In this document: piece by piece, positions 6,118 to 52,052 of the stretch
Numbering within the stretch: the first letter of the stretch is position 1
Layout of the letters: every line of letters starts with the position of its first letter
Origin: Anthoceros angustus
Lineage: Eukaryota > Plantae > Anthocerotophyta
Assembly: GCA_010909165.1 (NCBI GenBank)
Contig: MU008167.1
Span: 558,001-622,000 of the forward strand
Direction: 5' to 3'
DNA: 64,000 nucleotides
Notes under the pieces: generated by a model
Database searches by the model: none
The model's input: the letters and a program-made list of their open reading frames with translations, nothing else
What the model was told of the DNA's origin: nothing
Program-made: the position numbers and the translations under genes

Positions 6118-13691
<7,574 letters not shown>

Positions 13692-14693
13692 GGCCACGCC
13701 CTCTCCCTCCTCCCCGTCCTCGGCCGCCGCCGCTGCAGCCCCCCCTCCTACTCCGGTTCCTACTCCTGCTCCTGCGGCCTGAGCCTCAGCGGCACCTCCC
13801 GCTACACCCGGAATTCTGCACATAAGCAAGCCTACGATTCCCGCAGGCAGCGATCTAGCGGCCCGGAACTGTTGCAGCCGCTACCATCGCCGCAGGCGCA
13901 TGCGGTGCGGCATCTGGCTGCTGCCGGCGATGGAGCTCGAGCCGGCCACCCGCGCCGCGCCGGAATGACGACGCTAAGTGACCAGAGAGCGCGCAACAAT
14001 CCGCTTGCTGCGCGTCTGCTGCTGCTGCTGCTCCTCTTGTTGCGTGTGTGCCAAATGTTCCAAAGGCTGAGGGGAAAAGGGAACGCCACAGCAAGGCCAA
14101 GCCAGGACGGGCAGGTTCATCTCAGACGCCTCGCCATTTACTAATTATTATAAGATCGTCACACTGGAAATGAACGAAATTTGCAAACCTTTTGCGTTAT
14201 TTATCTGCGGATTTTTTCTAGGTCTTTCCCATTGACCAGTGGAGTAAGTGTCGTTAAATCTCAAGATTTATTTTCAAAAGAAATCCCTACACACCTATAT
14301 TACAACCCCCGAAAACAATAAGGATCGAGGTAGACAATTTTATCCTTATTTAATCTTATGATATTTTTAAACAAGGATAAAATAAAATACAACACACATA
14401 TATATAAGAGCTTTTTTTTCAATAGCGTCACCAATGAGTTCTGCACGGGGACTTGTGCGAACGAACGTCGCTGGCTATATGGCTATTGATGCAATGTGTC
14501 AACCAGGTCACCAAGGTGTGCCCTCAACCAAAGCATGGCCACGTCAGAAGGAAGGAATACATAGAATAGATTAGCCATATCACAGGGCACAAGAGACTAA
14601 GCGACATCTCAACGCGAGGCCTCCAATCTTAGATTGGACAAGCTAAGTAGCAAACTACTAGAGACGAATCTGCGTTGGATCTCCAAAGGCTTG

Positions 14694-15254
14694 TGTCATG
14701 GCAAGACGGGTGCTGATACATATGATGTCTGTAAGTACATGCGGATGATTGTGAGCGTATGCTCATATGCATGGGCATGGGGGGTGATGGGCATGCACAG
14801 ACTCACACCCGCCATGAACGGGCATAGCGGCAGTCAGGTTTGAGGAGCCGGACTGTGATCACGGCGGAGTTATGGCTTCCGCCGAGAACACCGATGGAGT
14901 CATGCGCCCTAAGCAAGTTGCCCGTGACTGGCGTATGCGACGCCGAGCGGAAGGGGATAAAAGGGACAGCAATCCGGAAGAAATGATTCTTGATGTTTTG
15001 TAAACGGATGACAGCCACTCCCATGTGGGCGGTGAATGTAGGGCTTTGGGAGTGAGAAGGGATAGCGGTGAGAAGGTTTTTTGACGGCTATTGCGCAGAT
15101 GTGTGTTGTGAGTCTGGCCGAATGAGTTTTGCACATCAGCAATCCTCTTCTTTGTTCTCTGGAGCTCCACATTGCAACCGCCAACGTCGTGAGGCACGCG
15201 GAGCGCCCAAGCACCACAAGCAACGTAGCCAAAGGGGCCCACGGATGCCAGACA
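14694..15254 (+). repeat. 5' LTR of the DNMT-gypsy element
   Basis: Begins tgtcatggcaag and ends gccagaca; the first ~440 bp align with 26000-26440. A TGGTGGA PBS-like motif follows at 15266. Confidence 0.8.
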
Positions 15255-15499
15255 AGATAAGTAGATGGTGGACCGTAAGGAGAATACTGTGGACTTTTCC
15301 TTGCTGTTTTATGCTGATCATTCCATCGCTGAGTTGGCCGCTTTGGCAGAACTAGAGCCTGCCTATCTATGGCGAAGATTGTGGGAGGAGGTGATTGATA
15401 AGTTGGCCTGGCTAGCGGATTGGACCAGTGAAGGGACCAATACTGACTTTGACACAATGCCGTACATAGTGTCACGCAGGGGGCGGGATTGATGCGGTG

Positions 15500-16700
15500 A
15501 TGGTGCTCCTGCGCTCAGGTTGGACGAACGAGAGTACTCCGGTGCAGGAAGCTCGTAGCCCCGTCGTCCAACACCCTCCAGCGCGCAGGAGCGGTGGACA
15601 ATTTGAGTGGAATCAGAGTCCTATTCGCACCATAGCATTCGAAGAAAACGGAGGTGAGGTCAGAATGGAGTATGAACCAGCACCAAGCAAGAATGACGTG
15701 TTCACAGGTCGGCACGGCAGCATGTCGCTTGCTGATTTTGAAGAAAAATTCAGATGGGCCATTGATGAGATGGTGCTCAAGTACAAGTCGGAGTTTACCC
15801 CGGAGATGGCTTTGAGGAAGATGAGCACGTTCCTGGCCGGAGAAGCCCTTACATGTTATCGTGATTGCAAGGATCAAATTTTGCAAGATGCCCGATCCTT
15901 GGCACGGACAGACAGAGCAAAAAGGACTTTGAAAGGAGACGAAGAGGGAACATCGTCCAGTGCAACCCAAGCAGCTGCCATCACATTTCTAGTGGATGAA
16001 ATGTTCAGCAGGTTTGCGAAGATGTTCCCGGTGTCCTCTATCGAAAAGATCCAGGAACTGTCTAGGTTCACCATCAAGCCCAATGAGCCTCTTAGATCAG
16101 CATATTTGAGGCTAAGACAGCTGGTGAAAGACACACGAGTGAAGACCATGCGGGAGGCCGCACAGATTTACATAGCCGCTCTTCCAGGGAGACAGAGAAG
16201 GGTAATTGCCAACTTCCTACACATGCTACATGGCGCAGACTATGAGCTGGAGCAGGCTTATGAAATGGCGGAGAGAGTCATGAGAGGAGATGCTGTGACC
16301 AGTGCGTATTGGGAGGAACACAACCTCGTCAAAGGGCAGCAGCACAATACGCAATCGCAAAGAGCACAAGGGAGGAGTTCCCATCGTGACCAGACACAAG
16401 GGAACGTTGTGCGAAGGCACTCACCTGCCAAGGAGCGCTCGGCCAATAGTGCAATCGGTGCCAAGGCGCGTTAAACAAGGTGTGGGTTCTCACAAAGCCT
16501 TTGAATGCGAGTTTCGCGTCGGCGGGGCTAAGGAAAAGGAGGTGTGTAGGACCTGCGCCAAGACGGGCCATACAGAGGCAGCATGTTGGCAAGCACACCC
16601 CGAGTTCAGGCCCAAAGGGGTTGGAGAACGAGTGGGCGACAAACTGAAGCCAACCACGGGTTACACACGAAAGGCGCTTCTAAGTGAGGTACATCGGTTG
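15500..16700 (+). CDS. gag-like ORF with CCHC zinc knuckle (frameshifted near 16470)
   Basis: 325-aa ORF 15497-16474, then CRTCAKTGHTEAAC (CX2CX4HX4C) in the overlapping 16302 frame; cut at the inversion breakpoint. Confidence 0.8.
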
Positions 16701-18064
16701 AGTTTGTGTCTTCTTCGGAACACAGGTTCATTGGTGGTGGTTGTGATCTTGAACTTGATACGGTCATACCGCCCTAGTTCGGCCCAACTGAACGCGAAAG
16801 TACCACGATTTTTGAATAACATGTCTCGAATCCTCTGTCGCTCAGCTGGTTGCAAATCTTCACATATCTGCCAATCATCGACCGCATTCTCATAGTTCCT
16901 TTCTCGTGGCAAAGTAGCAGAGGCTGCTGTATTGGCGGCCTGTTCTTGTTTCTCCGACGCGGAGGTAAGTTCACTTTCACAGATCACAAAACGCCCATCC
17001 CCATTCTCACGGCTCATGGCTATCTGTATCGCCAAACCTGCAGTGATCAACCATTGCATGCAGGTCATGTCAAAAGCTTGTCCGATCAACCTGCATCGGG
17101 CCGATTCCGACACACCAGGTGTGCAAGTGCCATCTGTATCAAATCCCATGGCACGTTCTCGCTCTGTTATCGTTGGCTCCCCTACTTCATTTCCCTTTGT
17201 GTCCAGCACCATGCCTTCTCCCCCTTTCCTAAACGCATAGGATTGCACGGTCTTGACGAGTGTGGGCCACGCCCTTCTCGGCTTTCCCACCTCGTTCACT
17301 GGATAATGGGGTACCTTATCTCCCTTGCGTACCGCTTGTGGCCTTCGTCCTGGACCCAGAATGTCCTTTACATAGCGCGACGCGGGCACCGTCAACCGCC
17401 GGTGATGCCTCAGGGATGTCACACTGCCAACATTGGTCCAGAAGCTTCGCACTCGATGTGCATATGAACCGGTCTGCACGGCGTCCACAATGAATTCTTC
17501 TCCCAGCCAGTCTCTGAGTTGCCCGTATTGTTTCCGGACGTCTTCACGTCTATCGAATGCACCACACACGTTTTCGAGTAGGTACCAACAGGAAGGGTTG
17601 GTCGTTTGCACTTCCCTCAGAATCCGGATGACTTCCGATGCCAATTCCAGGCCATCGCCTGAGCCACGGCCAGCTCTGGAAAAGTTCCTGCATTCCCAAC
17701 CTGCAACCAACATATCTACCTTGCATCCAAGGGCATCAATTTGGCGCTTTCCCACTAACAAGATGTCTGCAGGCAACCGGCTTTGGCATCCCTTGATCGC
17801 TTCTCTACTAATCATCGCGGCGTGTTCCCTTTGCATCCGCATAATTCTAGTCCTGGCCACCGCACGCGCCCTTTCATCCAGTTCGACACATGTGTATTTC
17901 TTTATCCGAATGCCGCTTCTCAACACCGCCTCCAACCCACTGCTGATCCCGGAGCACAGTTCCATGAGATGAATGCCCCGTCCTCCCACCTTCCATCGGA
18001 TCACCTTGTTGTTGACCCACTTGGCGGATTCAAAACTAGCTTTGTGAGGCCTGTTTTCAGGCAC
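16701..18064 (-). CDS. DNMT3-like C5 cytosine DNA methyltransferase (core ~17048-17974) fused in frame to the N-terminus of RT; part of pol, now inverted
   Basis: All main motifs are in order: I LMELCSGISSG, II YTCVELDE, III PADI, IV MLVAGWECRNFS (catalytic Cys kept), VI YLLENV, VIII HRVRSFWTN, IX EPTITERERAMGF, X RLIGQAFD. The ORF then runs into WQICEDL...FAFSWAELG...EPVFRRRHKL, the gypsy pre-RT region. Confidence 0.93.
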
Positions 18065-18249
18065 TCACGGGTTAAGGAACACTCCTGAACTACTCTCTGC
18101 CGGAGATGTTCCCGTGTTAGCGCTTGAGTCAATTGCCTTGTGCTCCTGACATACAAGCAAGCATCCGCCTCTTAGTCCGAATTTCCTCCCTTGTTAGTTC
18201 TTGGTTTCTTCCCACACCTCATACATGAACACTTCCCGCTCACACGCGG

Positions 18250-18431
18250 TCACGTGTCACCTGTTCTCCCAGTTCTCCTCATACTAAGCGGGATTCGGGC
18301 CATGTGTGAGAAGTCCCGTCTCGCCATCGTGTCAGAATGCCACCGAGTGCGTGGATCTACTCCCATTCTTTGGTCCATGTGTGGCGTCGGCCAAAGCAGC
18401 ACATCATAGTTCCTTGCATTGGACACCAAGC
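18250..18431 (-). pseudogene. C-terminal half of the gypsy aspartic protease
   Basis: CLVSNARNYDVLL continues the frame LEVHC from 20921 once the TIR insert and one AAGC copy are removed. Confidence 0.75.
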
Positions 18432-20920
18432 AACACGATAATTTTTGAAGGGGGGGATATCCTTCGCCGAGACAAGACCCCTTGTCACGAAGAACACCTT
18501 TCCTAGAACGACATGCCCTACTTTGATAATGCACACACCCTTTACGAGGTCATATCTTTGATAAAAGATGCACTTTCAAGTCTACACCGAGCTGGAGCAC
18601 AATAGGGTGTGGGCCCGTCTGCGTTTTGTAGAATGCATAGAGGGCTGCCATTTTCATATGTTTATTACAACCGAAAACTTTTACTTTCAAGTGGTGGAAC
18701 ACAATGAAAACAATCTTGTACTAGCGGGAGTCTTATTTCAATGGTCGTGAGAACATTGCAACAAACAACTGCTAAAGGAAGAAGTGGTCATCAGCATCGA
18801 CAATAGTCATTCAAGAGTGCGGCCCGACGACTCATCCATGCCTTGCGCCGAAACTGAGTCAAGTACCACCGCCATATTCCGGAGGCGGTCCATATCCTCC
18901 GCCTCGAAGTTGTCGTTCTCCTCCATTGCTTGCTCGTCTTCAATAGTACCATTCTTGGGCCCAGCGTCCGACGGTGTCGACTGCCACACAGCATCTAGCA
19001 TCTGCTGACCCTCATCCAAAAGGTCGCCAGTCGTGGTCTTCAACCTTCTGGCACTCAATGCAACCACTTGGGCTTTAAGGCAATGCTAGCGTCCTTAAAA
19101 TGAACAAAGTTAGTTGCCCATGCGCCCATGCAAGCATCCTTAAAATCAACAAAATTGAGTTGTTAGGAAGATACAGGTTTTTCATTATTACACTTTTTTC
19201 CCAAACACTTGACCAACAATCCCAAGTTGCAACTCTTGAGGCGCTAAATATATATTTTTGAAGACAGCCTATGAGGAGGGGGGGCGCCGGCCGGCCGGCG
19301 CCCATGGGTGGGCAGGTGTGCTAGGGGAGGCGCCGGCCGGCCGCCCATGGGCGGTGTGCTAGGGGAGGCGCCGGCCGCCCATGGGCGGTGTGCTAGGGGA
19401 GGCGCCGGCCGGCGCCCATGGGCGGTGCTAGGGGAGGCGCCGGCCGGCGCCATGGGCGGTGTGCTAGGGGAGGCGCCGGCCATGGTGGTGTGCTAGGGGA
19501 GGCGCCGGCCGGCGCCCATGGGCGTGGTGGAGGCGCCGGCGCCCATGGGCGTGGCGCAGAGGGGCGCCGGCCGCCCATGGGTGGTGTTAGGGGAGGCGCC
19601 GGCCGGCCGCCCATGGGCGGTGTGCTAGGGGAGGCGCCGGCCGCCCATGGGCGGTGCTAGGGGAGGCGCCGGCGCCTCCTTAGCACCATCCTACGGTGCA
19701 TGCGGGTGAAGCTAGGGGGGGGACAAGAAGGGAACGGCAGGTATCCTATCACCGATGGAAGGTGTGGCCCATTTGCAGGAAGGGTTAAAAGATTTGCGTC
19801 CATAGGTGACTGTTGAAGAGTACAAGTGGTGGGAAGCCTTTTGGGTGGACCGGAAGGAGATTGCTATCATTGTGGAGAATAACATTGGGCTAGTGCTACA
19901 GCGTCCTTGGAAGTGGTTTTCACGTGTAGAAGTGGATCATACAGCCTGACCACTTCAAGTGCCGGATGAAGCTTTGCTAGATGAGGCATTATTGAGGGAC
20001 CTCCACAGTGATATGTACTTGGGGCATATCAAAATGCGGGAAGGCAACTGGAAATGGCACGGATGAATGGGGACATAACGGAACCGAGAGGGATGTTTCG
20101 CGGCTGCAATACGGACACGCATAGGCCATTACGGATTGGGAGGTCATTGACGTGAAGCTAAACGCACCACGACCTCACTTTCTTCTCCACTGGTATCGGA
20201 CCGACCGCACAGATGCGTATGAAGGGAGATATGTGCAGGAATACATAGTCCGCCAGGGTGGTAACCCATCTGGTCCAATGCAGAGGAAAAAAGGGAATAA
20301 GGTCCATTACCTGAAAAACATACAAGAGGTATTTGTGAATGAAACAGTCATCCTGTACTATGGGTTTGTGTTGAACGCACGGAAACATCTATATGCGGTG
20401 GACAAAAAAGCGATAAGGGATAAGCTCTGCGAGTTGCGTGGCTTCATACAACTGCAGTCAAAGTGTCAAGATAGTGATGACAATGGAGGAGAAGTCGGAC
20501 CAAGTGATGACGATGGATTGAACTCGGGATGAGTGAAACGAAATCTCGTTTTCGGGGTCCCGAGTTAATGTTGTAAGTCCGGTCGATGTTTACGTGTTAG
20601 GAAATACCACTGTCGTGGCTTTTGTGGTGTCATAACAAAACCACATTTCCATCCCAAAGCGAGTTCTGATCGTCCTGCGGCGAACGGCCTTCCTCACCGT
20701 TCCTACTTTGCATCATTCCCTAGGTTCGAGTTTGCGACCACCATTCGACACAAACATTCTTTGGATGGAAAGTAGTAACTTTCTTGGTGACACCTTTTTT
20801 CGAGTCGCTTTTCCAATGCCTTCAAAACGCTATTTTAGGGCCCATCAAAAACCCCCTTCAGAGATTATTTGCGGAAAACCCCCTTCGAGATTATTAACCC
20901 CCTTCAAAAATTATCGTGTT
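18432..20920. mobile_element. Unclassified 2.5-kb TIR element inserted in the protease
   Basis: Perfect 23-bp TIR aacacgataatttttgaaggggg at both ends and a 4-bp TSD AAGC (18428-18431 and 20921-20924). Subterminal cccccttc..gattatt repeats at 20850-20905. Confidence 0.88.
19270..19680. repeat. GC-rich ~38-bp minisatellite (ggcgccggccg.ccgcccatgggcggtgtgctagggga)
   Basis: About 10 imperfect copies inside the TIR element. Confidence 0.92.
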
Positions 20921-21616
20921 AAGCAATGAACTTCAAGAACCGTCGCATCCTTGGTACCTGGCTTAAGCTCTATGCGAACCGGATCCCTCGTGATCCCCAT
21001 TACTTGCTCCCTGGTGCCCGCGGACGTGGTGATACGTACTTCACATGGCCTCAGTCTGTCGCCATAGAGCTGAAGTGCCTTCGCACACGGATCCCAAGTA
21101 GCACTGGGTCCGCGCCTGTGTCTACCAAGACACATTCCGGGGCGAAGCCATTCACGGTGACTTCTCGGCTTCGATTGTCCACCATGGCGACTCCCCCTTT
21201 TCCCCGAGCCGCTGGTTTCAGATGTTCCCCGCATAGGCTGGTGAAGCCAGACATCGCGTCAGCTTCTGGGCATGCACCTTTCATCCATGCCTGCATCGCC
21301 TGCCTGAATGGCTGCAGCTTCACTCCTGTGTCAGCCCAGTGGGCACGCCCATTGCCTTTCCAAGAAGAGCTCCATGTTGGGCGGCTTCCCTTCGCGGAGT
21401 TCATGTGCTCGGGATCCTCCACCTGCCGGAAGGATCTGGGCATCTTGGGTTGGCTCCTTGTCCCGATCCTTTTGCTTTTGACAGCTTCCCCCATGTCAGC
21501 ACCGCCTTGGGTCACCCCCACGGTCATTAGCGCATACACTTCTTGGTCCGAGTCGTACTCTTCCAGGGCCGCGTCAGTGGCCCTTGATGTGCTTACACTC
21601 ATCGCCAATTGTTCCT
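20921..21616 (-). pseudogene. gag-pol linker and N-terminal half of the aspartic protease (inverted block)
   Basis: Minus-strand ORF with VLVDTGA active site (ECVLVDTGADPVLLG), frameshifting to ...DPVRIELKPGTKDATVLEVHC. Confidence 0.85.
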
Positions 21617-24553
21617 AGTCCCATGGAATGGGACATCGTAGACAAACGGTGCAAGGAACTAGCTGCGGCTGGGCTAATCAGGAAGTCAACATCGCAATAT
21701 GCCGCAGCTACCGTGCTGCCACTCAAGAAGGATGAACATGGGGAATGGAAGGATAGGAGAATGTGTGGGGACTACCGGGCTCTGAATGAAATAACGCCCA
21801 TGGAGCGGTATCCCATGCCCACGATGAGATCTTTGGCGCCATTGGTGAAGCCAAGTACTTCACCACTGACTTTCGATCCGGATTCAATCGGATAGTGATT
21901 GAGGAGGAAGACAAGTGCAAGACAGTTTTGGGGCAAAGAGCTATGGGAATGGGAGACCATGCCATTCGATGAAGAATGCATCCATATATTTTCAACGTGT
22001 GGTGACTTGGAATTGCAAGGGTGGCGTTGTCAAGTGTTACATCGATGACATTCGTGTTCGAACAACTGGAGGAACACATTGAGCACTTAGAGGTCTTCAG
22101 CCAAAACTGGATTGAAGGCCCATCCCAAGAAATGCAAGTTCGCATACAGGGAGATTGAATACCTAGGGCACAAGATTGTGCCAGGGGGCGTGATGCCACA
22201 GTTGGCCAAAGTACAAGCGATGAGTCTCATGCCCAGACCAAAGGATGTGGCTGCCTTGAGGGCATTCCTGGGCTTGGTGAATTATTATCGTCGGTTTGTA
22301 AGGGACATGAGCAGAACCTGCAAGCCACTATATGAGCTACTCAAAAGGGAAACTGGCAGGGGTGGAGCAAGAGCAAGCGTGGCAGGAGTTGAAAGAGCAG
22401 CTGGCAGAGAGGCCAATGCTTAAGCGGCCCAACTTCGACAGGCCCTTCGTCCTATACACGGATTGGAGTGCTGTAGGCATTGGTGCCGTGCTTGCCCAGG
22501 CAGATGAGGAAGGAAGAGAGCGGGTTGTGGCGTATGCGAGCAGGTCGAACAACACCGCGGAGGCCAACTATTCGTCCTATGAAGGGGAGTGCCTTGCCGC
22601 TGTGTGGGCCGTCTTACACTTCAGAGTATATCTATTTGGTCGAAGTTTTCAATTAGTCACGGATCACCAGCCATTGCACTGGCTGATGACCAACATGAAG
22701 CTGAGCGGGAAGCTTGCCAGGTGGGCTCTCCTGCTATCTGAGTATGATATGCAAATTGTGCACCGCGCTGGGAAGGTACACCTCAACGCTGATGGGCTCA
22801 GCCGGAACCCGATGTGTGGGGCCGAAGATACCACTGGGGCGAGACAAGACTTCGGATCTGTGCAACATTTGCCCAGTGGGTATTTGGCGATGCTGTCCTT
22901 GGAGCCAGTGTGATCAGACGTCAGAAGGAGGTCGAGACATATGGAAACTCAAGCATGCCATTCAGCTGTTAAGGGATGGGCATGTGGCTGATGTGGACAC
23001 AATGTCACTCCAGAAGCTGCAGCGACGGATTGCTCGCTATACATACAAAGACGGCAAGGTGTATGTGGAAGATCGAGGGGTGCGTAAGGAGGTGCCACCT
23101 GTCGGAGAACGAAGATCACTAGTGACCAAGATACACAGAACGTTGGGACATTTTGGTGTCAAGAGGACACACCATATGTTGAAAAGCACATACTTTTGGT
23201 CAGGTATGTATGCGGATGTAGAGCAGGTGGTGGCGCGATGCGCTGCATGTGATGCAGTGAAGGCAAGGTTCAACAGCCAGGATGTGGTGCTACATTCGCC
23301 CATCGTGGACTATTCTTTCGATGGTCAGTTGATTTGATGCCAGAATTGCCAGTGACCAAGCAAGGCAACAAGCACTGCATGTTGATGATAGAGCACTTTT
23401 CGAAGTGGGTGGAACTAGCCTTTCTCCCGGTCAGAAGCTCCACGTACACAGCCCGCGCATTTCTGCAGTGTGTCCTCAGCAGATATGGAAGTTGCGCGGA
23501 GGTGTTGACGGACCAAGGCAATGAGTTCCGCGGTGAGTTCCAAGCGTTGCTGGATCGGAGTTTGATAGACCACCGCCGCACATCTCGAGATCATCCTCAA
23601 GCTGACGGATTGGCAGAACGGCTAGTGCAAACTTTTAAGGACGCTCTTCGCAAATACTGTACTGAGGTTGAGACCAGTTGCTGGGATGAGTTGTTACCAT
23701 ATGTTGCATTAGGATACAGGATCAGTGTGCAGGCTGCTTTGGGCAACTTCAGCCCATATTTCATCATGTTGGGCGGAATCTTTGTCATGCCAAACATTGT
23801 GGCGTATGCCTATTCTAAACCGAGATTGGGCACGTAATCCGGAGGAATGTTTCAGAATTACAAAATCGCGCCAAGTTGTTTCAGCGGGTAATTCCCATGG
23901 CCATGGATAACTTGGCCGTTGCCCAACATCGGGACCAACTTCGATATGCCTTTACGCGCGGTGGCTCATGGAAACCCAAGGCGAGGAAATTCGAAGTAGG
24001 GGACTTTGTGTATTTACAACACCGACCATCAGGCACGTTGGTTGTAAGCACTGGGCGCTTGATTTTGCGGGTGGTGAATGTGGGTGAGCAGGGAGTCATT
24101 GAATTGGAAGGTCAGGACGGACGACGCTGCAAGGAACACATGCGTCACTTGGCACCTTGTCACCTGCCAAACTTGGACACAAGGACTCAGCCACAGGCAT
24201 GGAAACCACCACTTGACCTGCCTTGCGAACTTTGCGGCCACATTACAGACCCGGAGCTCATGATTCTTTGCGACCAGTGCAATCGGGGGTATCATGTGTT
24301 TTGCCTACGACCCCCTCTCACGATGATTCCCGATGGTGAATGGTACACATCGCGTTTTCCGCGACTCAAGACAAGGGTCAGCGGACGACGGCTGCCGCGA
24401 AGCTATCGAAGGATAAATACCTTAGGGCAAAAACGGTGCATAAGGCCGTCGGCGCTCATTCAGAGCAGAAGAGAGAAGGGCGTGAGCGGCGAAGATATCC
24501 GAGCGTGGCGGTGGCGCACGCATGCGGGAGGCAAGACAATCAAAGGCCCGTGA
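21617..24553 (+). pseudogene. pol: reverse transcriptase, RNase H, integrase and C-terminal PHD finger; several frameshifts and stops
   Basis: RT: GLIRKSTSQYAAATV, RMCGDYRALN, YIDD at 22038. RH: FVLYTDWSAVGIGAVL, LVTDHQPL. INT: HRTLGHFG...CAAC, VLTDQGNEF, HPQADGLAER. PHD at 24224-24350. Confidence 0.93.
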
Positions 24554-24942
24554 GCAAAAACAAGCTCATGAGCGGGCTTGTGTGAGTTGCAGGTGCCAAG
24601 TGTAGCGGGAGGCCTAACCGGGCTCCAGCCGTTGGAAGCTGTGTGAGATAGGGAGGAATTGACTGCGAGCTCTCACCATCACTCCTGACATCAGGGTTGG
24701 TCAGCTCGCGACTTGAGGACAGTGCAACTACGGATCACCCTCAAGCCGCACGACTGCTACGTCACCCAATCCGCGTGTCATAGACTACGACGCTGGTGAG
24801 CGATTTGCGCACAGTACTTCCTATGGTTTGAGCTGACGATTAGCCATCATAGTGGTGACGTTAGGCGGTGGTGGTCTCGGAGGGTGACTGGCGCCAGCGG
24901 TGTGGGCACGCTAACCCGATGTCAGCAGGTTGCTAGGACAAC

Positions 24943-25766
24943 ATGGATCTGGAGGCGGACCATACCTGCAAAACGTGCTTTCGAAGGCTGCATCATAGTA
25001 TTCCGCAATTTCCTGACCGGCCGTGGGAGGACAAGTGGCGCACTCCTTTGATACGGAAGTATCAACCTGGCAAGCCTGAACGACCGGAGACCTTCCTGGA
25101 GTTGCAAGCCTTCTTGCTTTACATGGAATCTCATCATGAAACATGTTCAGTTGAAAACTTCTCATATGACCACAAGGACCTCTTTGAGCTTGCAGGGCGG
25201 GGCATGAACCGACAGACCTTTGTTTGGACAAGCTATTGTGAAGGTGCCTTTCGGAAGTTGGAGCATCACTTGTTTATGCACCAGGTCTTTGACCACTGGC
25301 CCAAAGAAGGGTTTTTGATGTACAGGCAGCAGGAGAAACCAGCGGATGTGCGCAGTTTGAAAGTCTGGCTCAGCCATTTTCATCGGGAGAAGGCGGGGCG
25401 GTATGCCATCGGTTACCCTAGAGCATTTTACTGCTTGCATGTTTGCATGATGGCTCGGAATGGGATGAACCAACAAATTTGAATCGGTATTTGCTTAACG
25501 ACAATGTGGGGGAGTTCTTGCGTGCTCAGTGCATTGAGAAACAATTTTATGTCAATGGTTTGAATGGCCCACAATTGCCTAGGGTCAAAACTGAGTTGGA
25601 CGGATTTGACGAAGAGGAGGAAATCATGGCTCGACATCGTGCCAGGGAGAGGCAGCGGTTAAGCAAAGCTCAAGTTGATGAGTACTTTGATCCCGAGGAA
25701 CGGCGGGTGGCAGCCCGCCACAGGAGTTTTGGAGTCCGACAAACCATCAGAGCCTCAATTGCGTGA
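24943..25766 (+). CDS. Extra ORF of unknown function between pol and the 3' LTR (one frameshift near 25460)
   Basis: Overlapping 179-aa and 107-aa ORFs with protein-like composition; no family recognised. Confidence 0.5.
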
Positions 25767-25999
25767 CAGTATGTTTAGACGATTCTATAGGCGGTTTCTG
25801 ATTCCGACGTGCCAAGTCTTGCCACACCTCGCACGATTGGTGGCGAATCGGGGCCATTTTGGTGTTTACCACCCACTTTTTGCTTAGCATAGGACATTGT
25901 TGTTATGCTGTGTTCAGGGGAGAGTGTGTGAGGGTAAATTGAGGTTTAGAGATAAACCCGATCAGTGCCATGCCGACCATGCAGCCATGGCGCGACAGC

Positions 26000-26582
26000 T
26001 GTCATGGCAAGACGGGTGCTGATACATATGATGTCTGTAAGTACATGCGGATGATTGTTAGCGTATGCTCATATGCATGGGCATGGGGGGTGATGGGCAT
26101 GCACAGACTCACACCCGCCATGAACGGGCATAGCGGCAGGTTTTGAGGAGCCGGTGTGATCACGGAGTTATGGTTTCCGCCGAGAACACCGATGGAGTCA
26201 TGCGCCCAAGCAAGTTGCCCGTGACTGGCGTATACGACGCCGAGCGGAAGGGGATAAAAGGGACAGCAATCCGCGAGAAGAGACGGATTGCTGATGTTTG
26301 TTCGTAGACAGGACAGCCATACAGTTCCCATGTGGGTGGTGAATGTAGGGCTTTGGGAGTGAGAAGGGATAGCGGTGAGAAGGTTTTTTGACGGCTATCG
26401 CGCAGATGTGTGTTGTGAGTCTGGCCGAATGAGTTTTGCCATTTTGGTGTTTACCACCCACTTTTTGCTTAGCATAGGACATTGTTGTTATGCTGTGTTC
26501 AGGGGAGAGTGTGTGAGGGTAAATTGAGGTTTAGAGATAAACCCGATCAGTGCCATGCCGACCATGCAGCCATGGCGCGACA
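26000..26582 (+). repeat. 3' LTR of the DNMT-gypsy element
   Basis: Begins tgtcatggcaag, ends catggcgcgaca and is followed by the TSD CTTG. Its last ~145 bp differ from the 5' LTR but duplicate 25854-25997. Confidence 0.8.
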
Positions 26583-28318
26583 CTTGCCTCATTGGGCTAA
26601 GGGCTTGAAAAACCTTCAAGGGGGGATCTCCGACACTCAACTACCATGTCTCCCTATCTCTCGCTTCTCACTCCCCCTCTAGCCCTCTCCCAAGCTCCTC
26701 GACATCGATTTGTACTCCTTGCTTGAAAGGGGCGCCCGCGCCTCGATGATGAATCAGAGTCTTTGCTCGAAAAATAGATGAACGCCTCAACCTTGAGAGA
26801 GAACCATCGAAACATCCTCCTGCCTCCCGCTAACAAAGCTATAGGGGTCCCAGAAGTAGATCAAAACGAAGCAAAACTAGAGAAAAACGGTCCCAACGAA
26901 GAGCAGGAAAGAGCACTTGATTTCCCTGCAGCATATCCAAGCTAGGTTCTCAAGACTAGCACAAGGATCAAACCCTAGGTTTCTATTCAAAACGCACACC
27001 CAATGCCAAAACTGTCTAACTGACATACCAGTTCACGAGAGGGAGGCTTACATTTCTTAATGATCGAACCAACATGTCATTCGGGTATAACCTACCAATA
27101 CTAACAAATGAGCCTAACTCGCCTGTCTTACACCTTCAAATGAGCGAGGGTTTAGTAACTTCCATAGGCAGACCGTTTGCAATTGATGCTCCCATGAAGG
27201 AGAAGTTGAGTGATCTCTATAGAGCTTTGGAATCTTGTCATCGCCCTCTAAGACGTTCAACTTCGGTCGGATGACTTGTAACTCTTGCAACCTCCTTGAA
27301 ACCTTCATTGGAACTTCGGAATATCCAAGTTGCAACAACGTATAAATTTGAGACTGCAGGCTAGGCAGACCACGTTGTCACTCTTCCCACTAGTAAATCA
27401 GTGGACAGAGTCCATTAAATCATGACCAAATGGAGATTAAGAGTGTGTAGGTCGATTAGCCTAAATCATGCATTGAATTGGTGGAAGTAAAAGTGATTTT
27501 AGTTGAGCAAGTAAGAAGGGGCGAAGAGCTCTAAGGATTTGGTGGAGCTTTGGTAGCTTGTGGATGCTGTGGAGAAGTTAGGGTCGGAGCAATTCAAGGA
27601 CCTGCATAATCTGAAAGAGGATTTCGAGCGGGTGCGCAAAATTTCTAGCAAAGCCTTAGATATGCAAATGAAGATATTGGATGTCTAAGAGAAACAGCAC
27701 GAACATTCCTCGTAGAATTCAACGTCTTCCCTTTCATGAAGCAAACATGGGGATACTAGTTCGCATCACTCGCAACCAGCGAATATCCATAATGCCACTG
27801 TCAACCAACTGCAAAGTAAACTTAGGGAATCATAGCATATCAACACACACACACATGACAATAGGTTTTTGAAAGCACACTAACATGCTCTTGTTCTTCC
27901 TGGTGCCAACTCGCAATGGCTTGCTGGCAATGTACGGCAGAAATGTGAGCTGGTATTGGTATACCATTGCCGATCGACACACTCCGGGCATGGACAGACT
28001 ATGTACATCTCCTGGCTTATCCGTGGCATGTTGGCAGAATAGAATGTAATTCAAATGGAGGTTTTGAATTCGGGGAACCCAATTTGAACTGAGCTTGCAA
28101 AACTGTAGTCTGCAATGAATTTGCCGTGCCATAAGTGATCACGCACCTCATGATGGACTACCTTCACTGCACTACCTTCACCACACTATCTTCACCGTTC
28201 ATTGCGGAAGGCTGGTTTTGCATCAAAAAATGCCGAGGCATAGATCTTGGAGTGAGAACTCAAAACGTTGAGTGCCCGAGCACAATAGTTGGAAGTGCCG
28301 GGTCTTCTACAAATGAAG

Positions 28319-32242: not shown

Positions 32243-33657
32243 CCCTACTAGAAATGGGCACCCTATGTTACACTTTATGTTAAGATTTGGACCCCGGATG
32301 TAACACTCATGTTGCAATTTTGGGGTCATGTAACACTTTTGGGCCCCTTGTTACACTTTGGCTTGGAAACCATACCACGGCCGTTGTTGCAATCATGTTG
32401 CAATAGTGTTGCAATTATGAATGAAGAGAGGTGGTTTTGCCATCTCTCAAAATTGCAACATGATTGCAACATCTAAAGTGTTACAAGAGAGGTCTTGTAA
32501 CACTTTTGGAGGCTTGGTACCGAACCTCCTCCCCATCCACTATTCCTTTTACTTTTGCCCTTGTAATACCACGTTTACTTGGTAGTTACCGCCAATACGC
32601 CCAATACGACCATATATAAATACTGCATTTAATACATCCTTGTACTATACGCATGTAGTCACTATGATAAATGTAATGTATTATTCTAAGTGCTATACGG
32701 CGTATTCAATTTCATATAAAATAAGTTTGTATATTACGTATATACGACATCGGTCCGTATATTCATGGTACGATACTTTGTATTTACTATACGTGTAAAT
32801 AGCGACGGCCCTTTATACCCCTACTTTATAGCATGCCGGCTTGGTTTGTCCTTCCACCACCAATAGCCAACGGCTTCCGCCATGGCTATTGTCCCCACCT
32901 ATCACCTTATTGTGACGCATCACGTGAGGTTATGCCCCTACAAGATTGTCTTGTGCGGAGGAGATTTGGTATGCGGCTTATGCTTTTACGCCTCCATGTA
33001 AGGCACTTCCTACTCGTCATCGTATGCACTGTGAAACTTCCGCCTCCTGCTCGATTCGCAATTTTCTTCTTCCCACTCGCGTTTGGCCGAGGCAAGCTTT
33101 GCCACTTCCTCCGCTTCCTCCTCGCCTGCAGTACACATTGCACATACAAACCAGCATGGCCGTCATGAGTTATCCAAATTTATGCCAAGCTGTCCATTTG
33201 CCTTACCTTCCTCCTCCCTCTTTCTTCTTCCGCCTTCTTGCTGGACATTTTCCTCTTCCTCCTTCTTCCGGCCGCAGCCTGTCTCACCTTGCCCACCGCC
33301 ACCGCCTCCTCTACTCCTCCTCCCGTTTTCCTCTTCGGCCTCCACCCTTTATCATGTGGTGATCGATTGATCCCCATCATCAAAAGGTTACTACTTCTAA
33401 AGATATATGGGACAAACTTTCAAGTACTTACTAAGAGTCGAGCATGGTCACTTCTACATGCTCAAGATATGCTTTTTGCCTGCAAGCTAGGTGTGAAAAC
33501 CAACCCTTTGTATTAAATTAAGAATCATGGCAAGGATTTCTAGATGCCGCAATTTCTACGGTCTTAAGTTAGATGAAGAGACTCAAGTCATGCACCTCCA
33601 AGGCTCTCCCCCTTCTTGAGTCCCTTTGTTTCTACTCAAGCGAGTACTTCTAATAAA
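32243..33657. repeat. Chimeric duplication: copy of the CACTA end (32243-33355, matching 33823-34930) fused to a copy of copia gag (33355-33657, matching 29065-29380)
   Basis: Direct alignment by eye; both parts are similar with scattered indels. Confidence 0.85.
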
Positions 33658-35599
33658 AGCAAGGTGTAGAGAAAAGACATTGTCGGGCATAGAAGCGTTG
33701 TGTGAAACGTGGTATCCGCCATTGCTAGGCTGGCTTATGCTATCTGGATCGTATTCTAACACGCCCCTTAAGCTAGACTATGGATGAGCTATGAACCATC
33801 ACCTAATGTCATCCCCAATCCACCTACTAGAAAAGGGCACCCTATGTTACACTTTATGTTAAGATTTGGACCCTGGATGTAACACTCATGTTGCAATTTT
33901 GGGGTCATGTAACACTTTTGGGCCCCTTGTTACACTTTGGCTTGGAAACCATACCACGGCCGTTGTTGCAATCATGTTGCAATGGTGTTGCAATTATGTT
34001 AAGATGAAGTGAGAGGTGGTTTTGCATCTCTCAAAATTGCAACATGATTGTAATCTTCAAAGTGTTACAAGAGAGGTCTTGTAACACTTTTGGAGGCTTG
34101 GTACCGAACCTCCTCCCCATCCACTATTTTCCTTTTACTTTTGCCCTTGTAATACCACGTTTACTTGGTAGTTACCGCCAATACGCCCAATACGACCATA
34201 TATAAATACTGCAAATACATCCTTATACTATACACATGTAGTCTACGATAAATGTAATATATTATTCTAAGTGCTATAAGGGCGTATTCAATTTCATATA
34301 AAATAAGTTTGTATACTATGCGTATTCCATACGTACATCGTCATATATATTCATGGTATATGTATTTACTATACGTGTAAATAGCGCTCTTTCTACCCCT
34401 ACTTTATAGCATGCCGTGCGGTTTGTCCTTCCCGTCACCAATAGCCAACGCCCACCATGGCCCCAGTCCCCACCTATCACCTTATTGTGACGCATCGTGA
34501 GGTTATGCCCCTACAAGATTGTCTGCGGAGGAGTTTTGGTATGCTCGCTTATGCTTTTACGCCTCCATGTAAGGCACTTCCTACTCCATCGTATGCACCT
34601 CGAAACTTCCGCCTCCTGCTTCGATTCCCAATTTTCTTCTTCCTCCCGCTTGCTCTGAGGCAAGCTTTGCCACTTCTACCGCTTCCTCTCGCCCCTGGCA
34701 CACGTTGCACATACAAACCAACATGGCCATCATGAGTTACCCAACGCGTTAATGGGTGTACCAATCACCATAGCTGACCATTTGCCTTACCTTCCGGTCC
34801 ACCCCTCCTCGTACCGCCTGGGGATGGGCCCGTCTTTCCGGTTCCGCAGCCGTGCCCTTGTCACACTGCCCACCGCCGCCGCCTACTCCTCCTCCTCTTT
34901 TCCTCTTCGCCCGCCACCCTTTATCGCAGGTGGCGTTGCCTCAACTGGGCTCCACTATGTAGGTCCATGCTCTCGATCGGAGGCGCAAGATATGTGTCCG
35001 AAAAATTAGGCACATCGTCCTCAAGACTGCCTCGGAGTCCATATCCGCAGCGCCCCCCCACGTCGTCCCCTTGCCTCGCATCTGCAATCGCCTTTGCCCA
35101 TATCAAAGGCGCGCATGATGCCCTCTTGACCTCCTTCATTCTCTCTCTCGACATCTCTCATGCTAGTGACGCGCCTTTTGGCCCCCGCCAGCATGGATGC
35201 CGGGGTGATCCACTGCTGCCCGCCCCCGCCACCCGCCTCCTCCCCTCCCTGCTTTTTTGCCCACCGTGCACACAAGTGTGTTTCCTCACAGTGACGGATC
35301 GGTTGCCCCTCCGTGGTCCACCACCCGACTCCCCGCCCACACTCATTGTTCGCCATTCAAGCGTCGTCAATCCATCGATCCCAACGGCCTCCACCCTCCG
35401 CAAACATGGCGTCACCTTCCGTCTGGGCACTCCTCCACCTCTTCTCCAGGCTTGCTGCCCACGTGACGCCCCTCGCCTCCAATCACACCATTCCGGGCAT
35501 GCGCTTCCACCAAACTCGGCGATCGTGGTGTCGCGGGCACCACAATTTCGGCCCATACTGCTGCCGCCTCCCCTCCTGCCTGACGCGTGGCCCGTCTCC

Positions 35600-37299: not shown

Positions 37300-40200
37300 A
37301 CCATTTTGAAAAAGCTTGTTTGCAAAGGCCGGCGGTGGTCATTTCTTGCTATCGGGGACCCGGTATGTGCACTGCTACTTGCCCATAATCACAACATTTT
37401 CGACCACAACCTCGTGTGTGGAGCAATTTCATGTCCCATTGGTTACGTTGTAGCTTACTCGTGATGTATGATATTGCCCAAATGGCGCAGCTCTCAATGC
37501 CCCCATTACTCCATTTTAACGAATCATCGACTTCCTCGACCATTCCCACACGTCACTTGGGTATTGGCACATTCCGCCATTGGAATCGCGTGCTTGTTTG
37601 TTTGGAAATACTTTAATGCCCACTTGGCATGCTGGTTTTGCCCCATCCGTTCAGCTACTCAAACGACATGCCACAATCTATGTGCCAGCGCGCATGGGTT
37701 CCTCCTCTCTCCATCCCCTCGCCGGAGTAGGCACGGCCAAGGCCCACCCCCTGTTTCCATCCACTGTCTCCGGATGCATCATGCACTGAGTTACCTGCGA
37801 TGGCCACACAAATGGACCATCGATGGAGTGCACCCTGTACACGGAAACCTTCTCAGGATTCACAAGGTCAAACCTTGCACGACTTCCGCAGCGATGGCCT
37901 TGTCCCTCTGGCCGACACTCGTACCATCAACCTTCAGAATGGATTATACTCCGAGAAGTGCATCCGCAGATTGCTCTATGTGGCCGTAGAAGGCGCGCTC
38001 CTCTTGAGCTCCAGCCTGTCCCACCATGATAAACTTTGCTTTGCTATCTTTTGTGCTCCGCCGCCGTTGTCCGCCTCACTGCCCGAGGTGGCGCCTTTGT
38101 TCCACATGTGACTATGTGCGTTGCAACGGGGCCATCCATTATAGCCCTCACTGGGTCATAGCAGGATGCCCCCTCCCAAGCGCTCACCGCCCTTCTTCTG
38201 CACCCACCTCTTGAAACTTCGTGCTCCTCATGTGCACCGTACATCCTCACCTCTTCGTACATGTCCAAAACGGCTGCATCACCTTCGTGTGATACAGACA
38301 TAAGTATGGGCTGGCGCACCTCAAGCATCCATTGTGTCAGACGGCGACACCCAGACTTTTCTCTCCCACACGGTCCTCGGGACTCCATGATCCACCGACG
38401 TGACCATAGTAACGCGGAGGAATGACATCAAATGCATACTCTCCTCTCTCATATACCCCACGGCTATCTTGGACTGGTTGGCACAAGCCGTCTGCTGGAT
38501 CCTAAGTATCTCTCCACCGGGTACATCCACAGTGTGCACTGGCCCAATGCACCACCTCGTCCACTAAATGTATTATGAGGTGGGTTGATATATCAAAGAC
38601 CTTTGGAGGAATTGCTTTTCGAGAGCACATCACCCGCATGACCTCTTCTCGTTGTGCTTGAATTTCATGGCTATTGTCCATTGGCAAATCCATCCTGATC
38701 ACCCAATTTCACAACCGCCTTGTACACCTCGGGTCTATGCACCCCGAAGGACGATGGGAAGATGATTTCCAGCATGATGTGCGATCATGGCACTTCTGCC
38801 GCCCACTTTGCCCCCTCTAATTTCGCTCCTATGTTAGACCCATATGTGGGCTTTATGCGTTTAATTCTCTATGACTTGGAGGTCGTCTTTCGCCAAAGCG
38901 TAAGGCGCCTCGGGGCAATGGCGCCCTCTCCGCCACAACCACCTTTTCCCTCCATTGGCTTCCATGTCCATCCTTGATGCTAGGTCGTCTCGCTCTCAAA
39001 GTGTGCCATATGGCCTCTGCATTGTTCTTTTCCACGTGCATGACATCCTTTGGCGCCATCACAAGAAGGCTGACGCCATGGGAGCACCCTAAGCAGAAGA
39101 CATCCGCGTTCCAAAATTTCCTCACGCGGATCTCGGCGGGTGGCGCACCTTCTCTGCGTACCATATCTGTCACCACATCATCAAACGTTGGTGGCCTGGG
39201 TGGGGGACGGAGTTCCGCCCGTCCATCGTACCAGTCCATGTCTTCCCACCGTCCGCTATCCCTTCGGGCAACCACCTCCTGCCAACATAAACTGCTTTTT
39301 AATTGATGAGAATAGCGGGAATCCAGTCCGCCCAGCAATCCACACGCCGGGTCCCTTTCACTTGCAATCCGGTCGGTGCCCAACCACAGGTAGTCGGCAA
39401 TGACGTCAAAGACCGCCGCACCCTAAAATGCCTCCTAGGATCGTTCACGGTATTGAAAAGTCTTCCATGTCCACCCCTCTCCACAACTCTTCCGGTTCTT
39501 CTACCGGGCGCCATATAAACATCAAAATTTTTACCATGCCCGGTCCGGTACAATGAGAGGCATGATGACATGGGCGTCCTTTGTGCAAGCCGGAGGCATG
39601 TTGTGAGCGAATAGCATAAGCGGCCATATGGACGTGTTGACAGACTGTGACCAAAGGGGTTGAAGCCGTCATGCATAATGCCAACCTCAAGTTGCGAGGT
39701 TCATCCCCGAACCCTTCAACTGCATCAAATACTCTCCATGTTGGGGTGTCTGCCATCATGGACATGTCCCCATTCTCGCTTTGCCTCCCGACGTACCAAG
39801 TCATCATCTGTGCTATTTCCGGCATTCTGAACATGCGTTTCAATCGCGTCTTAAGAGGGAAATGCCAGAGGACCTTGGGGAATGATCTCGCTCATCAAAC
39901 CCTTCCTTGTACTGCGCGTGCAATGGGCAATGGACGCCCCGTACTCACCCCCCGAATAGAATACAATCTTTTCACAAGCATGGATTTTCACGTATCTTGG
40001 CCCAAACATGTGCAACATGACTTTGCCTCGTACATGTCCTTGACTTGTTCGAATCGCAAAATATCCACACTTAAGAGCTTTAAAAGTGCGTCACGCGACG
40101 CCATCGATGTCATACATCGTTTGCCAAGACAAAGAATAATGGTTGCGCTTAGCCCGCTTTCGATTGGACTTCCTCTTCAATGTGGTATAACGCGTTTCGC

Positions 40201-49800: not shown

Positions 49801-52052
49801 TGACAACAGGGCTGAAGACACCCTCTTCAAAGTAATCAATACCCTTCCGTTGAGTAAAGCCACGGGCCACAAGCCGAGCCTTGTAACGAGCAAGAGTACC
49901 ATCTGCTCGGTATTTTTTTCTTGTACACCCATTTACAGGTGATGAGATTCTTACCTGGAGGAAGATTTGTGACTATCCATGTTTTATTGGAGATGAGTGA
50001 AGCATATTCTTGATCAGTGGCTATCTTCCATTGAGCAGCTTCGGGCCCGGATAGAGCCTCTGAAATAGACGCTGGTTCACCCCCTTGAGGACGACGGGCC
50101 CGAGCACCATATCCATGAGAAAAGTCCAAGTCCGAAAACCTAGTGGCTAGCACCCCTTGGGTGGAACGAGAAGAACGACGTAAAACAGGACCAGGAGGAG
50201 GGCCCAGTATGCCGAGAGAGAGGTTAAGAGGAGGTGAAGCAGCTAAATCAAAAGATCCAAGGGAGTCACCAGGTAAAGGAGGGCCCTCAAGTGCTGCACG
50301 ATGAGGAGAAGAAGGAGGAGAATCGGGGAAGAGACCGGCAGACCAACCCCAATCATCCTCAGAGCCAACTGTCTAAGTGGGAGAAGAAGGGTCTGGAGCA
50401 AGGACCAAGTTGGTAGGTGGAGTGGGAAGAGAAACTGGTGGAGGAACAACAACAGGGTTAGAAGCTACAAGAATAGAGGTAGACGAAGGGGAGGGCACCG
50501 GCATAAGAGAGTCCTCATCATAAGAGATGACATTAGAATCTGAAGAGAAATTGTCAGATAGAGGGGCACCTCTAGGATCGGAAGTAAGAAGCAAAGGTTC
50601 TCATCAAATATCACGTCACGGCTCACAGTACCGCGCCTGGTAGCCCTATCAAGCAATCTGTAGCCTTTGATACCCTCATCTTCACCATATCCAATGAAAG
50701 TCAGCTTCTTTGGGTCAAATTTCTTACGTAGCTTGGAAGGAATATGTTGATAGGCATCACAGCCAAAGATGCATAAGTGCGTGAGGGAAGGCTTCCTCCC
50801 AGTCCAGCACTCATACAGTGTTTGAGTTGGGAGCGAGGCAGCACTGCGGTGGCATTTGCCCAGAGAAAGTTAGGCAGTTTGGCAGCAAGCAGGTTAGTGC
50901 GGCAACCCGTTAGTGCGGCAACCTGTGACTACTCCTTTTATGTGATTCTCAGCTTTACTGTTCTGCTACTGGGAATAAGGAGTGGCCATTTGATGTTGAA
51001 TACCCACAGCAAGGAGAAAGGGCTTGAAGGCGATAAACTCTTCACCACCGTCAGTTTGCAAAACTTTGATGGTGTGGCCTGTGAGATTTTCAACAAGGGC
51101 CTTGTACGTGCGAAAGGCAGTTAGGGCTTTGTGCTTGTGCCGAAGAAAATAGAGGTGAGTGTAATGGCTGTAATCGTCCAAAAGCAGAAAGAGATACGAA
51201 TGGCCACCCAAGGAGACAATTTGCATCGGACCACTCAGATTGGCATGTATGAGTTCGAGAACCTTGGAGGTGCGACTCAAAGAGTGGGGATAAGGGTGAA
51301 CCTTATGCTTTCCAAGAACGCAGCCACTACAGAGAGGTACGTCTCTAATGGACTTAGGAAGGCTAAGAACCATGTCCTCCTTAGACATTCTTTTGATGTC
51401 GTTGAGGTAATGATGGGCTAACCGTAAATGCCAAAGCTTCGATTCTAATTCCACAGGCAAGTAGGTAGCACTAAAACTGAGAACAAGAGCCGATGGGCTA
51501 GGAAGTATGCCACGAGCTACAGGATACAATCTGCTTGAGGGAGGACACGTAAAGGTCAGAACGTCACCCCCTCGTGAAAAGGTATGTATGGTACAACCTT
51601 GTTGAGTGAAAGAAATCCTACTTTGATCATGTGAGAGGCACCTGAATACAGAAAGCAGATTGATTACCAAGCAAGGGACATGAAGAACGTCCCTGCTCAC
51701 AACCACTTGATTTGTAGGTAGTTGAACTTGGACCACGCCCATGCCAGTGGCTTGCAGAGTGGTAGCACTGCCAACTTGAACAGGGAAAGGTGCTGGTAAG
51801 TCTTCAAGAGTGAGAAACCACTCACGGCGTGAGGTCATGTGCTCAGTGGCTCCAGAATCCATAAGCCATTCATCATTGGCTTGGGACAAAGGCAAAGTAC
51901 GAGCCATGAAGAGAAAAGCGGACTTAGTAGCATGAGCAGACGACTTAGTTGTGGAACTCGAAGAAGGTAGGTCAACACCATAGCTGCGGCGCACAAGCCC
52001 GGGCAAGTCCTGTGTAGAGAACCACTCAAGGGCATCACAAACACACACATAG

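Follow-up and report, generated by a model that had tools for sequence, protein, structure and literature searches.

The closest described system is KnitGypsy-Dnmt3 of the alga Klebsormidium nitens, a Gypsy retrotransposon with DIRS-like repeats in the order A-coding-B-A-B (Fig. 4c legend, PMC5890265). Its enzyme gave no methylation in yeast, a result that the authors call inconclusive, DNMT3B having failed too, and the SymbioDIRS-Dnmt3 enzymes of Symbiodinium methylate CG de novo in the same organism. According to the available sections of that paper, methylation of cDNA by a packaged enzyme is the authors' proposal for the DIRS elements, and self-limiting and other roles of the DNMT are listed as open (PMC5890265). 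The study is cited for 'streptophytes' in the accessible text of PMC12344493 and of a preprint (bioRxiv 10.64898/2026.05.21.726589), the latter treating the streptophyte Gypsy-DNMT3 as a separate capture. A PHD finger was proposed to guide insertion of Gypsy-7a_cRei, a chlorophyte Gypsy element (available text of PMC9940879).

The reading favoured here, with fair rather than high confidence, is that the locus holds a broken Gypsy element of the KnitGypsy-Dnmt3 type, likely in a hornwort, whose DNMT3-like Pol domain is predicted to be packaged with reverse transcriptase (RT) and to methylate the element's own cDNA before integration. Its repeats run A-coding-B-A-B as published, and it is for this reason placed as a land-plant member of that kind. 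The earlier note on this DNA had proposed an extension of DNMT retrotransposons to land plants. The bryophyte-type flank supports the extension, but the novelty was overstated, the KnitGypsy-Dnmt3 kind being already known down to the repeat layout. A literature search, with most subscription papers outside it, found no paper on land-plant Gypsy-DNMT3 elements or on the formation of split repeats, and the accessible part of PMC10952607, on Anthoceros chromatin, makes no mention of such elements.

Architecture of the element

The window, meaning the whole stretch of 64,000 nucleotides that was analysed, contains one full-length Gypsy insertion of 11.9 kb (14694-26582) with TG...CA ends and a 4-bp target duplication. 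Because it starts with TGTC, ends with GACA and has CTTG on both sides, it is a single complete insertion of the integrase type. Its features are the following (no strand is given where none applies):

14690..14693: left target-site duplication CTTG, the same 4 bases as at 26583-26586
14694..15132, plus strand: repeat A1, opening with the TGTC start of the element and holding a TATA-like GATAAAAG near 14957; probably the distal U3-R-U5
15133..15145, plus strand: primer-binding-site position, likely self-priming; 13/13 complementary to A2 26285-26297 (chance about 6e-6)
15470..16699, plus strand: gag; PF03732 weak, E 0.0033, below cut-off; Closterium P0018 E 4e-8
about 16515-16590, plus strand: CCHC knuckle of gag, in a second frame
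16700..21617, minus strand: inverted segment with protease, nested TIR element, DNMT and pre-RT region; relatives change strand at both points with no residues lost
16700..17029, minus strand: linker plus N-terminal pre-RT region, continuing the DNMT reading frame; best matches are protease-DNMT-RT relatives, E 2e-11
17030..17977, minus strand: C5 cytosine methyltransferase domain of DNMT3-like type, its catalytic Cys encoded at 17692-17690
18065..18431, minus strand: C-terminal part of protease (YDVLL motif) and linker to DNMT; frame-broken, from a six-frame reading and not mapped by the aligner
18432..20920: nested TIR element with perfect terminal inverted repeats of 23 bp and AAGC as its 4-bp duplication
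20921..21614, minus strand: linker between gag and pol, and aspartic protease (DTGA), with two frameshifts; ORF without Pfam match
21617..22850, plus strand: reverse transcriptase, with YIDD and six frameshifts, and RNase H
22900..24200, plus strand: integrase with H2C2 zinc finger, DDE core and C-terminal domain; PF17921 E 3e-17, PF00665 E 9e-11; three frameshifts
24218..24365, plus strand: PHD finger at the integrase end; PF00628 E 2.9e-10; last Cys pair absent in the studied copy
24937..25766, plus strand: possible extra ORF in two pieces (181 + 114 codons), between pol and B1
25853..25997, plus strand: repeat B1, ending GACA; likely proximal U3; 145/145 identical to B2
25994..26003: GACA-GC-TGTC palindrome where B1 meets A2, each half equal to one of the two insertion ends
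26000..26439, plus strand: repeat A2
26438..26582, plus strand: repeat B2, the element ending GACA
26583..26586: right target-site duplication CTTG

The inversion, 4.9 kb long, is real as sequence. Residues 65-478 of relative P0125 align to 17974-16700 (minus) and its residue 479 onward from 21617 (plus), and Closterium P0018 shows the same strand switch at its residue 1087. Undoing the inversion gives the domain order gag-protease-DNMT-RT-RNaseH-integrase-PHD. The DNMT had earlier been placed between protease and RT and described as fused in one ORF to the pre-RT region; both statements hold, as relatives cross the two breakpoints without a gap and the DNMT is in frame with a pre-RT region on which they align across the inversion. 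Absent from that description was the nested TIR element, 2.5 kb long, which lies between protease and DNMT with short ORF remnants and a GC-rich tandem array (19270-19690, units of 28-42 bp).

Assignment to Gypsy is likewise sound, RT, RNase H and an integrase with H2C2 and DDE motifs following each other in Gypsy order. The DIRS/tyrosine-recombinase class was rejected on the presence of rve and H2C2, on the 4-bp duplication and on finding no recombinase family among the 14 ORFs scanned. Membership of the chromoviruses (Tcn1, Chlamyvir) was also rejected, the integrase end having a PHD only and no chromodomain. The nearest solved relatives of this PHD are those of ATXR5, WSTF, DPF3, Lid/KDM5, BAZ2B and UHRF1; the PHD fingers of ATXR5, WSTF, DPF3, Lid/KDM5, BAZ2 and UHRF1 are readers of unmodified H3 tails. 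The possible extra ORF at 24937-25766 has no match in Pfam, in the Atlas or among the fetched relatives.

The methyltransferase domain

The DNMT is encoded by an intronless stop-to-stop ORF of 467 codons on the minus strand (16661-18064), whose final ~11 codons fall beyond the inversion breakpoint. The search with PF00145 proposed in the earlier note gave 25.3 bits (gathering score 22; E 1.3e-5). Reading of the ORF by the usual DNMT motif numbering finds the motifs in the canonical order I to X, with catalytic Cys, ENV and RxR present as that note had reported: motif I ELCSGISSG at residues 35-43, II E61, III P98-D100, IV AGWEC125, VI E164-N-V, VIII R204-V-R206-S-F-W-T-N, IX ERERAMG and X G328...D332. 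The first Met of the ORF is residue 34, within the first strand of the structural model.

Conservation was assessed in 168 aligned DNMT relatives, the set after 20 short rows were dropped. The catalytic C125 is conserved in 166/168, E164 in 168/168, and R204 and R206 in 166/168 each. Motif IV has E-C instead of P-C; among the relatives E occurs in 101/168 and P in 55/168. Motif I carries C at a site where 125/168 relatives carry F.

The domain is of the DNMT3 class, closest to DNMT3A/B by profile and fold, as had been suggested. A profile of 35 sequences (the window DNMT and 34 relatives) searched against solved structures ranks DNMT3A (E 7e-25) above DNMT3B (5e-22) and DRM-type enzymes (3e-15 to 6e-12), with weaker matches to M.HhaI (1e-9), DNMT2 (4e-5) and DNMT1 (0.53). 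The window DNMT alone, searched against the PDB as a single sequence, has 0 matches and thus no DNMT3 at E<=0.001. The predicted model has a pLDDT of 92.8, and all 32 of the Foldseek matches listed are DNMT3A/B/C (best E 1e-18, ~20% identity). In the Atlas the best-matching PF00145 cluster is eukaryotic, has 57 members and is commonest in Streptophyta (0.97); viral clusters take the next two places. DRM enzymes have circularly rearranged motifs, VI-X before I-V. A plant DRM identity or origin was rejected, the motifs here running I to X and DRM scoring below DNMT3A/B.

The open DNMT frame had been noted as contrasting with the broken pol domains around it. The contrast is there, since the remaining 5043 coding bases of the element have 14 breaks (11 taken from alignments; 3, in gag and the tail of the protease, judged by eye) and the DNMT ORF has none, but special preservation of this frame is not borne out. 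The probability of no break in the DNMT ORF is 0.035 if that ORF is named beforehand, and the probability that the longest unbroken gap reaches its length is 0.48; the open frame is poor evidence of selection, and selective preservation was rejected. Unbroken runs of ~1 kb occur also in gag and in the RNase H-integrase stretch. The 11 aligned frameshifts (20921-24365) are all deletions of 1-2 bases, and the aligned stretches contain no stop codon. The assembly may for this reason overstate the decay, such short deletions possibly being long-read consensus or assembly errors. As assembled, the studied copy cannot make the polyprotein.

Relatives of the element

The search for DNMT relatives gave 1087 clusters at E<=0.001 and 522 at 1e-10; cluster relatives were taken from the best 150 of the 1087, and word searches added 9 and 34. 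Retrotransposon domains are carried by 124 of the 188 DNMT-bearing proteins fetched (some near-duplicates), with the DNMT before RT in 18 and after RNase H or before integrase in 106. The other 64 are fragments, 8 of which were reassigned to the before-RT type by protease or pre-RT motifs. Named proteins with the DNMT before RT are from K. nitens (GAQ93235.1, CCHC-protease-DNMT, presumably a copy of KnitGypsy-Dnmt3) and Closterium (GJP34393.1, CAI7733511.1, CAI7921020.1); those with the DNMT after RNase H are from Haematococcus lacustris (KAJ9527864.1, KAJ9525462.1) and Monoraphidium neglectum (KIY99053.1). In the set used here P0022, P0090 and P0043 are named chlorophyte proteins with the latter arrangement, and chlorophyte Gypsy-DNMT3 elements are not mentioned in the accessible text of the literature examined. 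Among the 29 proteins whose names were looked up, no land-plant relative of the DNMT occurs. Identity to the window DNMT is 36% over 327 residues for K. nitens, 37-38% for Closterium and 41% for the nearest full-length relative; these values therefore indicate deep divergence and no close donor.

An IQ-TREE analysis of the DNMT used 52 rows: the window, 23 before-RT, 10 unassigned and 18 of the 51 eligible after-RNase-H sequences. The 18 form one clade (98) with the window outside, and the window falls in a 13-row group with GAQ93235.1 at a weak SH-aLRT of 84. In the RNase H tree (36 rows, 30 of them sampled from 68 after-RNase-H relatives) the window and all 5 before-RT relatives separate from the 30 after-RNase-H rows with SH-aLRT 99. 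The Pol backbone thus agrees with the DNMT slot, before RT or after RNase H; both trees are unrooted, hold no host DNMT3 or DRM rows, and do not give the direction or number of captures. A position of the window DNMT beside two divergent rows, one of them DIRS-like, was obtained with FastTree (169 rows, long branch) and was discarded, as it was not repeated by IQ-TREE on the 52 rows. A PHD match is found in 66/86 after-RNase-H relatives and 1/5 before-RT relatives that have an integrase.

Two outcomes named in advance as fatal to the earlier proposal are not borne out. The DNMT is no one-off capture, being present in many related elements, and it is probably no recent processed copy of a host DNMT3/DRM gene, its nearest relatives among those fetched, in trees without host DNMT3/DRM rows, being retrotransposon-borne. 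The DNMT is very probably an old inherited part of a retrotransposon lineage rather than a recent host capture.

In metagenomes, contigs with the DNMT context numbered 0 of 110 candidates for the window DNMT and 0 of 18 for relative P0091; in viral contigs the counts were 0/8 and 0/40. Scanning of genome contigs yielded a single locus, L001. It carries an element of the after-RNase-H type, and no terminal repeats are visible on its 10.4-kb contig. Positions 3595-9516 of L001 hold a eukaryote-type Gypsy gene for RT-RNaseH-DNMT-integrase-PHD, and the contig, filed in a bacterial metagenome-assembled genome, is likely algal contamination. Protein P0215 starts with a related DNMT, followed by a stretch that looks, judged by eye, like DIRS-type RT, RNase H and an adenine-methylase-like end.

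The flanking host locus

An intronless PF14476 gene (At4g22030-like; 59639-60856, minus) lies 33 kb from the element. The best of its 23 matches is in the hornwort Nothoceros aenigmaticus (63%) and the next rows are at 46-49%; identity is 45% with Sphagnum, 38-42% with Marchantia and 33-40% with angiosperms, and no named alga is among the 23. A 25-row tree places it beside Nothoceros and one other row (89/97) inside a bryophyte set (100/100). Judged from one gene and one hornwort reference species, the host is probably a hornwort, though of another genus than Nothoceros. The flanking-gene check called for in the earlier note thus points to a land plant; the suspicion of an algal or contaminant contig did not hold for the host gene tested, which is bryophyte-type, and a Chara-type or other algal host was rejected on the 23 matches.

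An intron-rich gene for an FHA and AAA ATPase protein (6400-13900, minus) starts less than 1 kb from the insertion. The window also holds a TANGO2 host gene (54944-55774, minus), a broken Copia element (48311-52054, minus), a weak Transposase_21 (CACTA-type) fragment (39445-39891, minus) and a pair of direct repeats of ~300 bp, 94-98% identical and 1.58 kb apart (32244-32544 and 33823-34128), whose first 45 bases recur inverted at 48503-48548. The CpG observed/expected ratio is higher in the element (0.62-0.91) than in the Copia nearby (0.54) or the region of the host AAA gene (0.47), and thus gives no hint of additional CG erosion. GC is about 0.52 in the element and 0.50 in the window.

Repeats, primer site and insertion ends

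The repeats run A-coding-B-A-B in this one copy. A1 and A2 are 91.8% identical over 451 columns, with 12 substitutions and 11 gaps; a single 58-column patch holds 6 substitutions and 7 gaps, leaving 6 substitutions and 4 gaps elsewhere. The insertion is young, because B1 equals B2 and A1 and A2 differ little outside that patch. The diverged patch (14976-15018, 26276-26325) coincides exactly with the part of A to which the primer site is complementary, and may reflect conversion, mutation or consensus error.

The primer site directly behind A1 has the self-priming geometry of Tf1/Sushi-type elements, and its partner in A2 lies some 25 bases below a TATA-like box. With the primer site in this position U5 would end where A ends; the natural LTR would therefore be B+A, and the insertion would start and stop inside an LTR. 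The palindrome GACA-GC-TGTC occurs once in the window; the element has 30 perfect 10-bp palindromes, 19 of them in the tandem array. Integrase processing of a joined site leaves ends two bases apart. Here the palindrome halves are the insertion ends and stand two bases apart, which suggests that the integrase opens a two-LTR circle.

Proposed mechanism and alternatives

The RNA would start in A and prime itself at the site behind A1, yielding a cDNA whose LTR is B+A. This cDNA would close into a two-LTR circle, and the DDE integrase would cut the CA-GC-TG palindrome in the upstream LTR and insert the circle as A-coding-B-A-B. This part of the model is probable, though A1, the expected transcription start, pairs with the primer site at only 10/13 positions (14984-14996). 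The part that concerns the enzyme has about an even chance of being right. The DNMT, made within Gag-Pol, would enter the particle with RT and be freed there by the protease; it would methylate linear or circular cDNA, the new copy arriving pre-marked, and the integrase PHD would direct insertion to chromatin with unmodified H3 tails. Against PHD steering stand the missing last Cys pair of the studied copy and the 4/5 before-RT relatives with integrase that have no PHD match.

Against cDNA methylation stand the Glu for Pro in motif IV, the lack of CG erosion and the inactivity of the K. nitens enzyme in yeast (PMC5890265). The same points, E-C replacing P-C in 101/168 relatives, together with the self-limiting roles left open in the available text of that paper, favour a DNMT that acts mainly outside the particle or without catalysis, binding or shielding cDNA, or methylating host or element chromatin after nuclear entry as a self-restraint that lowers the copy rate. 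Such a role is unlikely, if far from negligible: the catalytic Cys and Glu and the two Arg persist in 166-168 of 168 relatives although overall identity is just 30-40%, which argues for chemistry, and the SymbioDIRS-Dnmt3 enzymes do methylate CG de novo in yeast (PMC5890265). Doubtful but possible is an origin of the A-coding-B-A-B layout during reverse transcription of a read-through RNA, with A1 made from A2 and B2 from B1, so that a linear TG...CA cDNA was integrated and no circle was necessary. A linear substrate of the integrase would give such ends and such a 4-bp duplication, and the published legend likens the repeats to those of DIRS (Fig. 4c, PMC5890265), but the primer complement behind A1 and the TATA-like box in A put the cDNA ends at B and the end of A rather than at the insertion ends, which instead correspond to the two halves of a single palindrome within B+A, separated by two bases. 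Rebuilding of A1 from A2 and B2 from B1 has been proposed for split-repeat tyrosine-recombinase elements.

An algal source is improbable, whether through sequence of an epiphyte or contaminant that was mis-joined to a hornwort scaffold or through recent horizontal arrival. All named DNMT relatives retrieved are algal, and the 11/11 aligned frameshifts that are 1-2-base deletions without stops may be long-read consensus error. However, the 4-bp duplication brackets the element less than 1 kb from the start of the FHA-AAA host gene, so that it was inserted in the studied locus; identity over the DNMT is no more than 41% even to the nearest full-length relative, with no close algal donor on record, and the GC content is like that of the window. 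It is very improbable that the inversion split the DNMT from the element and that the host keeps it as a domesticated gene. The 467-codon frame with all catalytic residues and the location on the same strand as the FHA-AAA gene ~3 kb downstream would fit, but the open frame is not significant as longest gap (P 0.48), gag and RNase H-integrase have unbroken runs of ~1 kb as well, the first Met lies inside the model's first strand, and the near-identical repeats (B 145/145) mark the insertion as young.

The preferred reading, a cDNA-methylating Gypsy element, can be carried further, tentatively and with considerable doubt, to an ancient green-plant-wide Gypsy-DNMT3 lineage that came onto land via bryophytes, with the DNMT after RNase H in chlorophytes and before RT in streptophytes. 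In such a lineage the integrase would open a DNMT3-methylated two-LTR circle at a palindrome in one LTR, and the PHD would replace the ADD domain, which in DNMT3 reads unmodified H3 tails. If true, circle opening inside one LTR would be an integration mode not shown for any LTR element.

Comparison with known systems

SymbioDIRS-Dnmt3 shares with the hornwort element a Dnmt3-type domain in Pol and split repeats, and differs by a tyrosine recombinase in place of the DDE integrase and by its dinoflagellate host. Gypsy-7a_cRei has likewise a PHD-bearing Gypsy polyprotein, but no methyltransferase is among its listed domains and its LTRs are nearly ordinary, the left one without its last 8 bp (available text of PMC9940879). 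Tf1/Sushi and the plant Tcn1 chromoviruses share a primer site complementary to their own terminal repeat; they differ by their chromodomains, and the accessible text of the survey does not contain 'methyltransferase', 'PHD' or 'hornwort' (PMC6317226). EpiLTRs and DAM-LTRs are also LTR elements with a methyltransferase and a chromatin-reader domain, but their DNMT is described as sister to DNMT4 and is accompanied by an adenine methylase (available text of bioRxiv 10.64898/2026.05.21.726589).

With KnitGypsy-Dnmt3 the likeness extends to an intronless, unrearranged Dnmt3-related domain inside a Gypsy Pol, in the same ORF as RT, to the set and order of RT, RNase H and DDE integrase, and to the A-coding-B-A-B repeats. 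The hornwort copy differs in its likely host, in being inverted, interrupted and frameshifted, and in its broken protease-DNMT linker; its PHD, self-priming site, 4-bp duplication and palindrome have no mention for KnitGypsy-Dnmt3 in the available text of PMC5890265.

Hornworts are transformable (PMC10952725), and Anthoceros vegetative tissue has CG and CHG methylation with almost no CHH according to the accessible part of PMC10952607; the activity of the DNMT and its effect on the host methylome are therefore testable in a land plant. The kind was published for one alga, and a young, likely hornwort copy together with Closterium and chlorophyte relatives makes it a much wider and older lineage, one that would have kept a predicted de novo methylase while shifting the DNMT between two Pol slots. 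Beyond the published system, sequence comparison of a single broken copy and its relatives would add a broader range of hosts, a second Pol slot for the DNMT and a circle-cutting model. New in detail are a primer site of the self-priming type, which would make B+A the true LTR, and a palindrome that matches the insertion ends; with this anatomy the split repeats described in 2018 gain a concrete model that can be tested.
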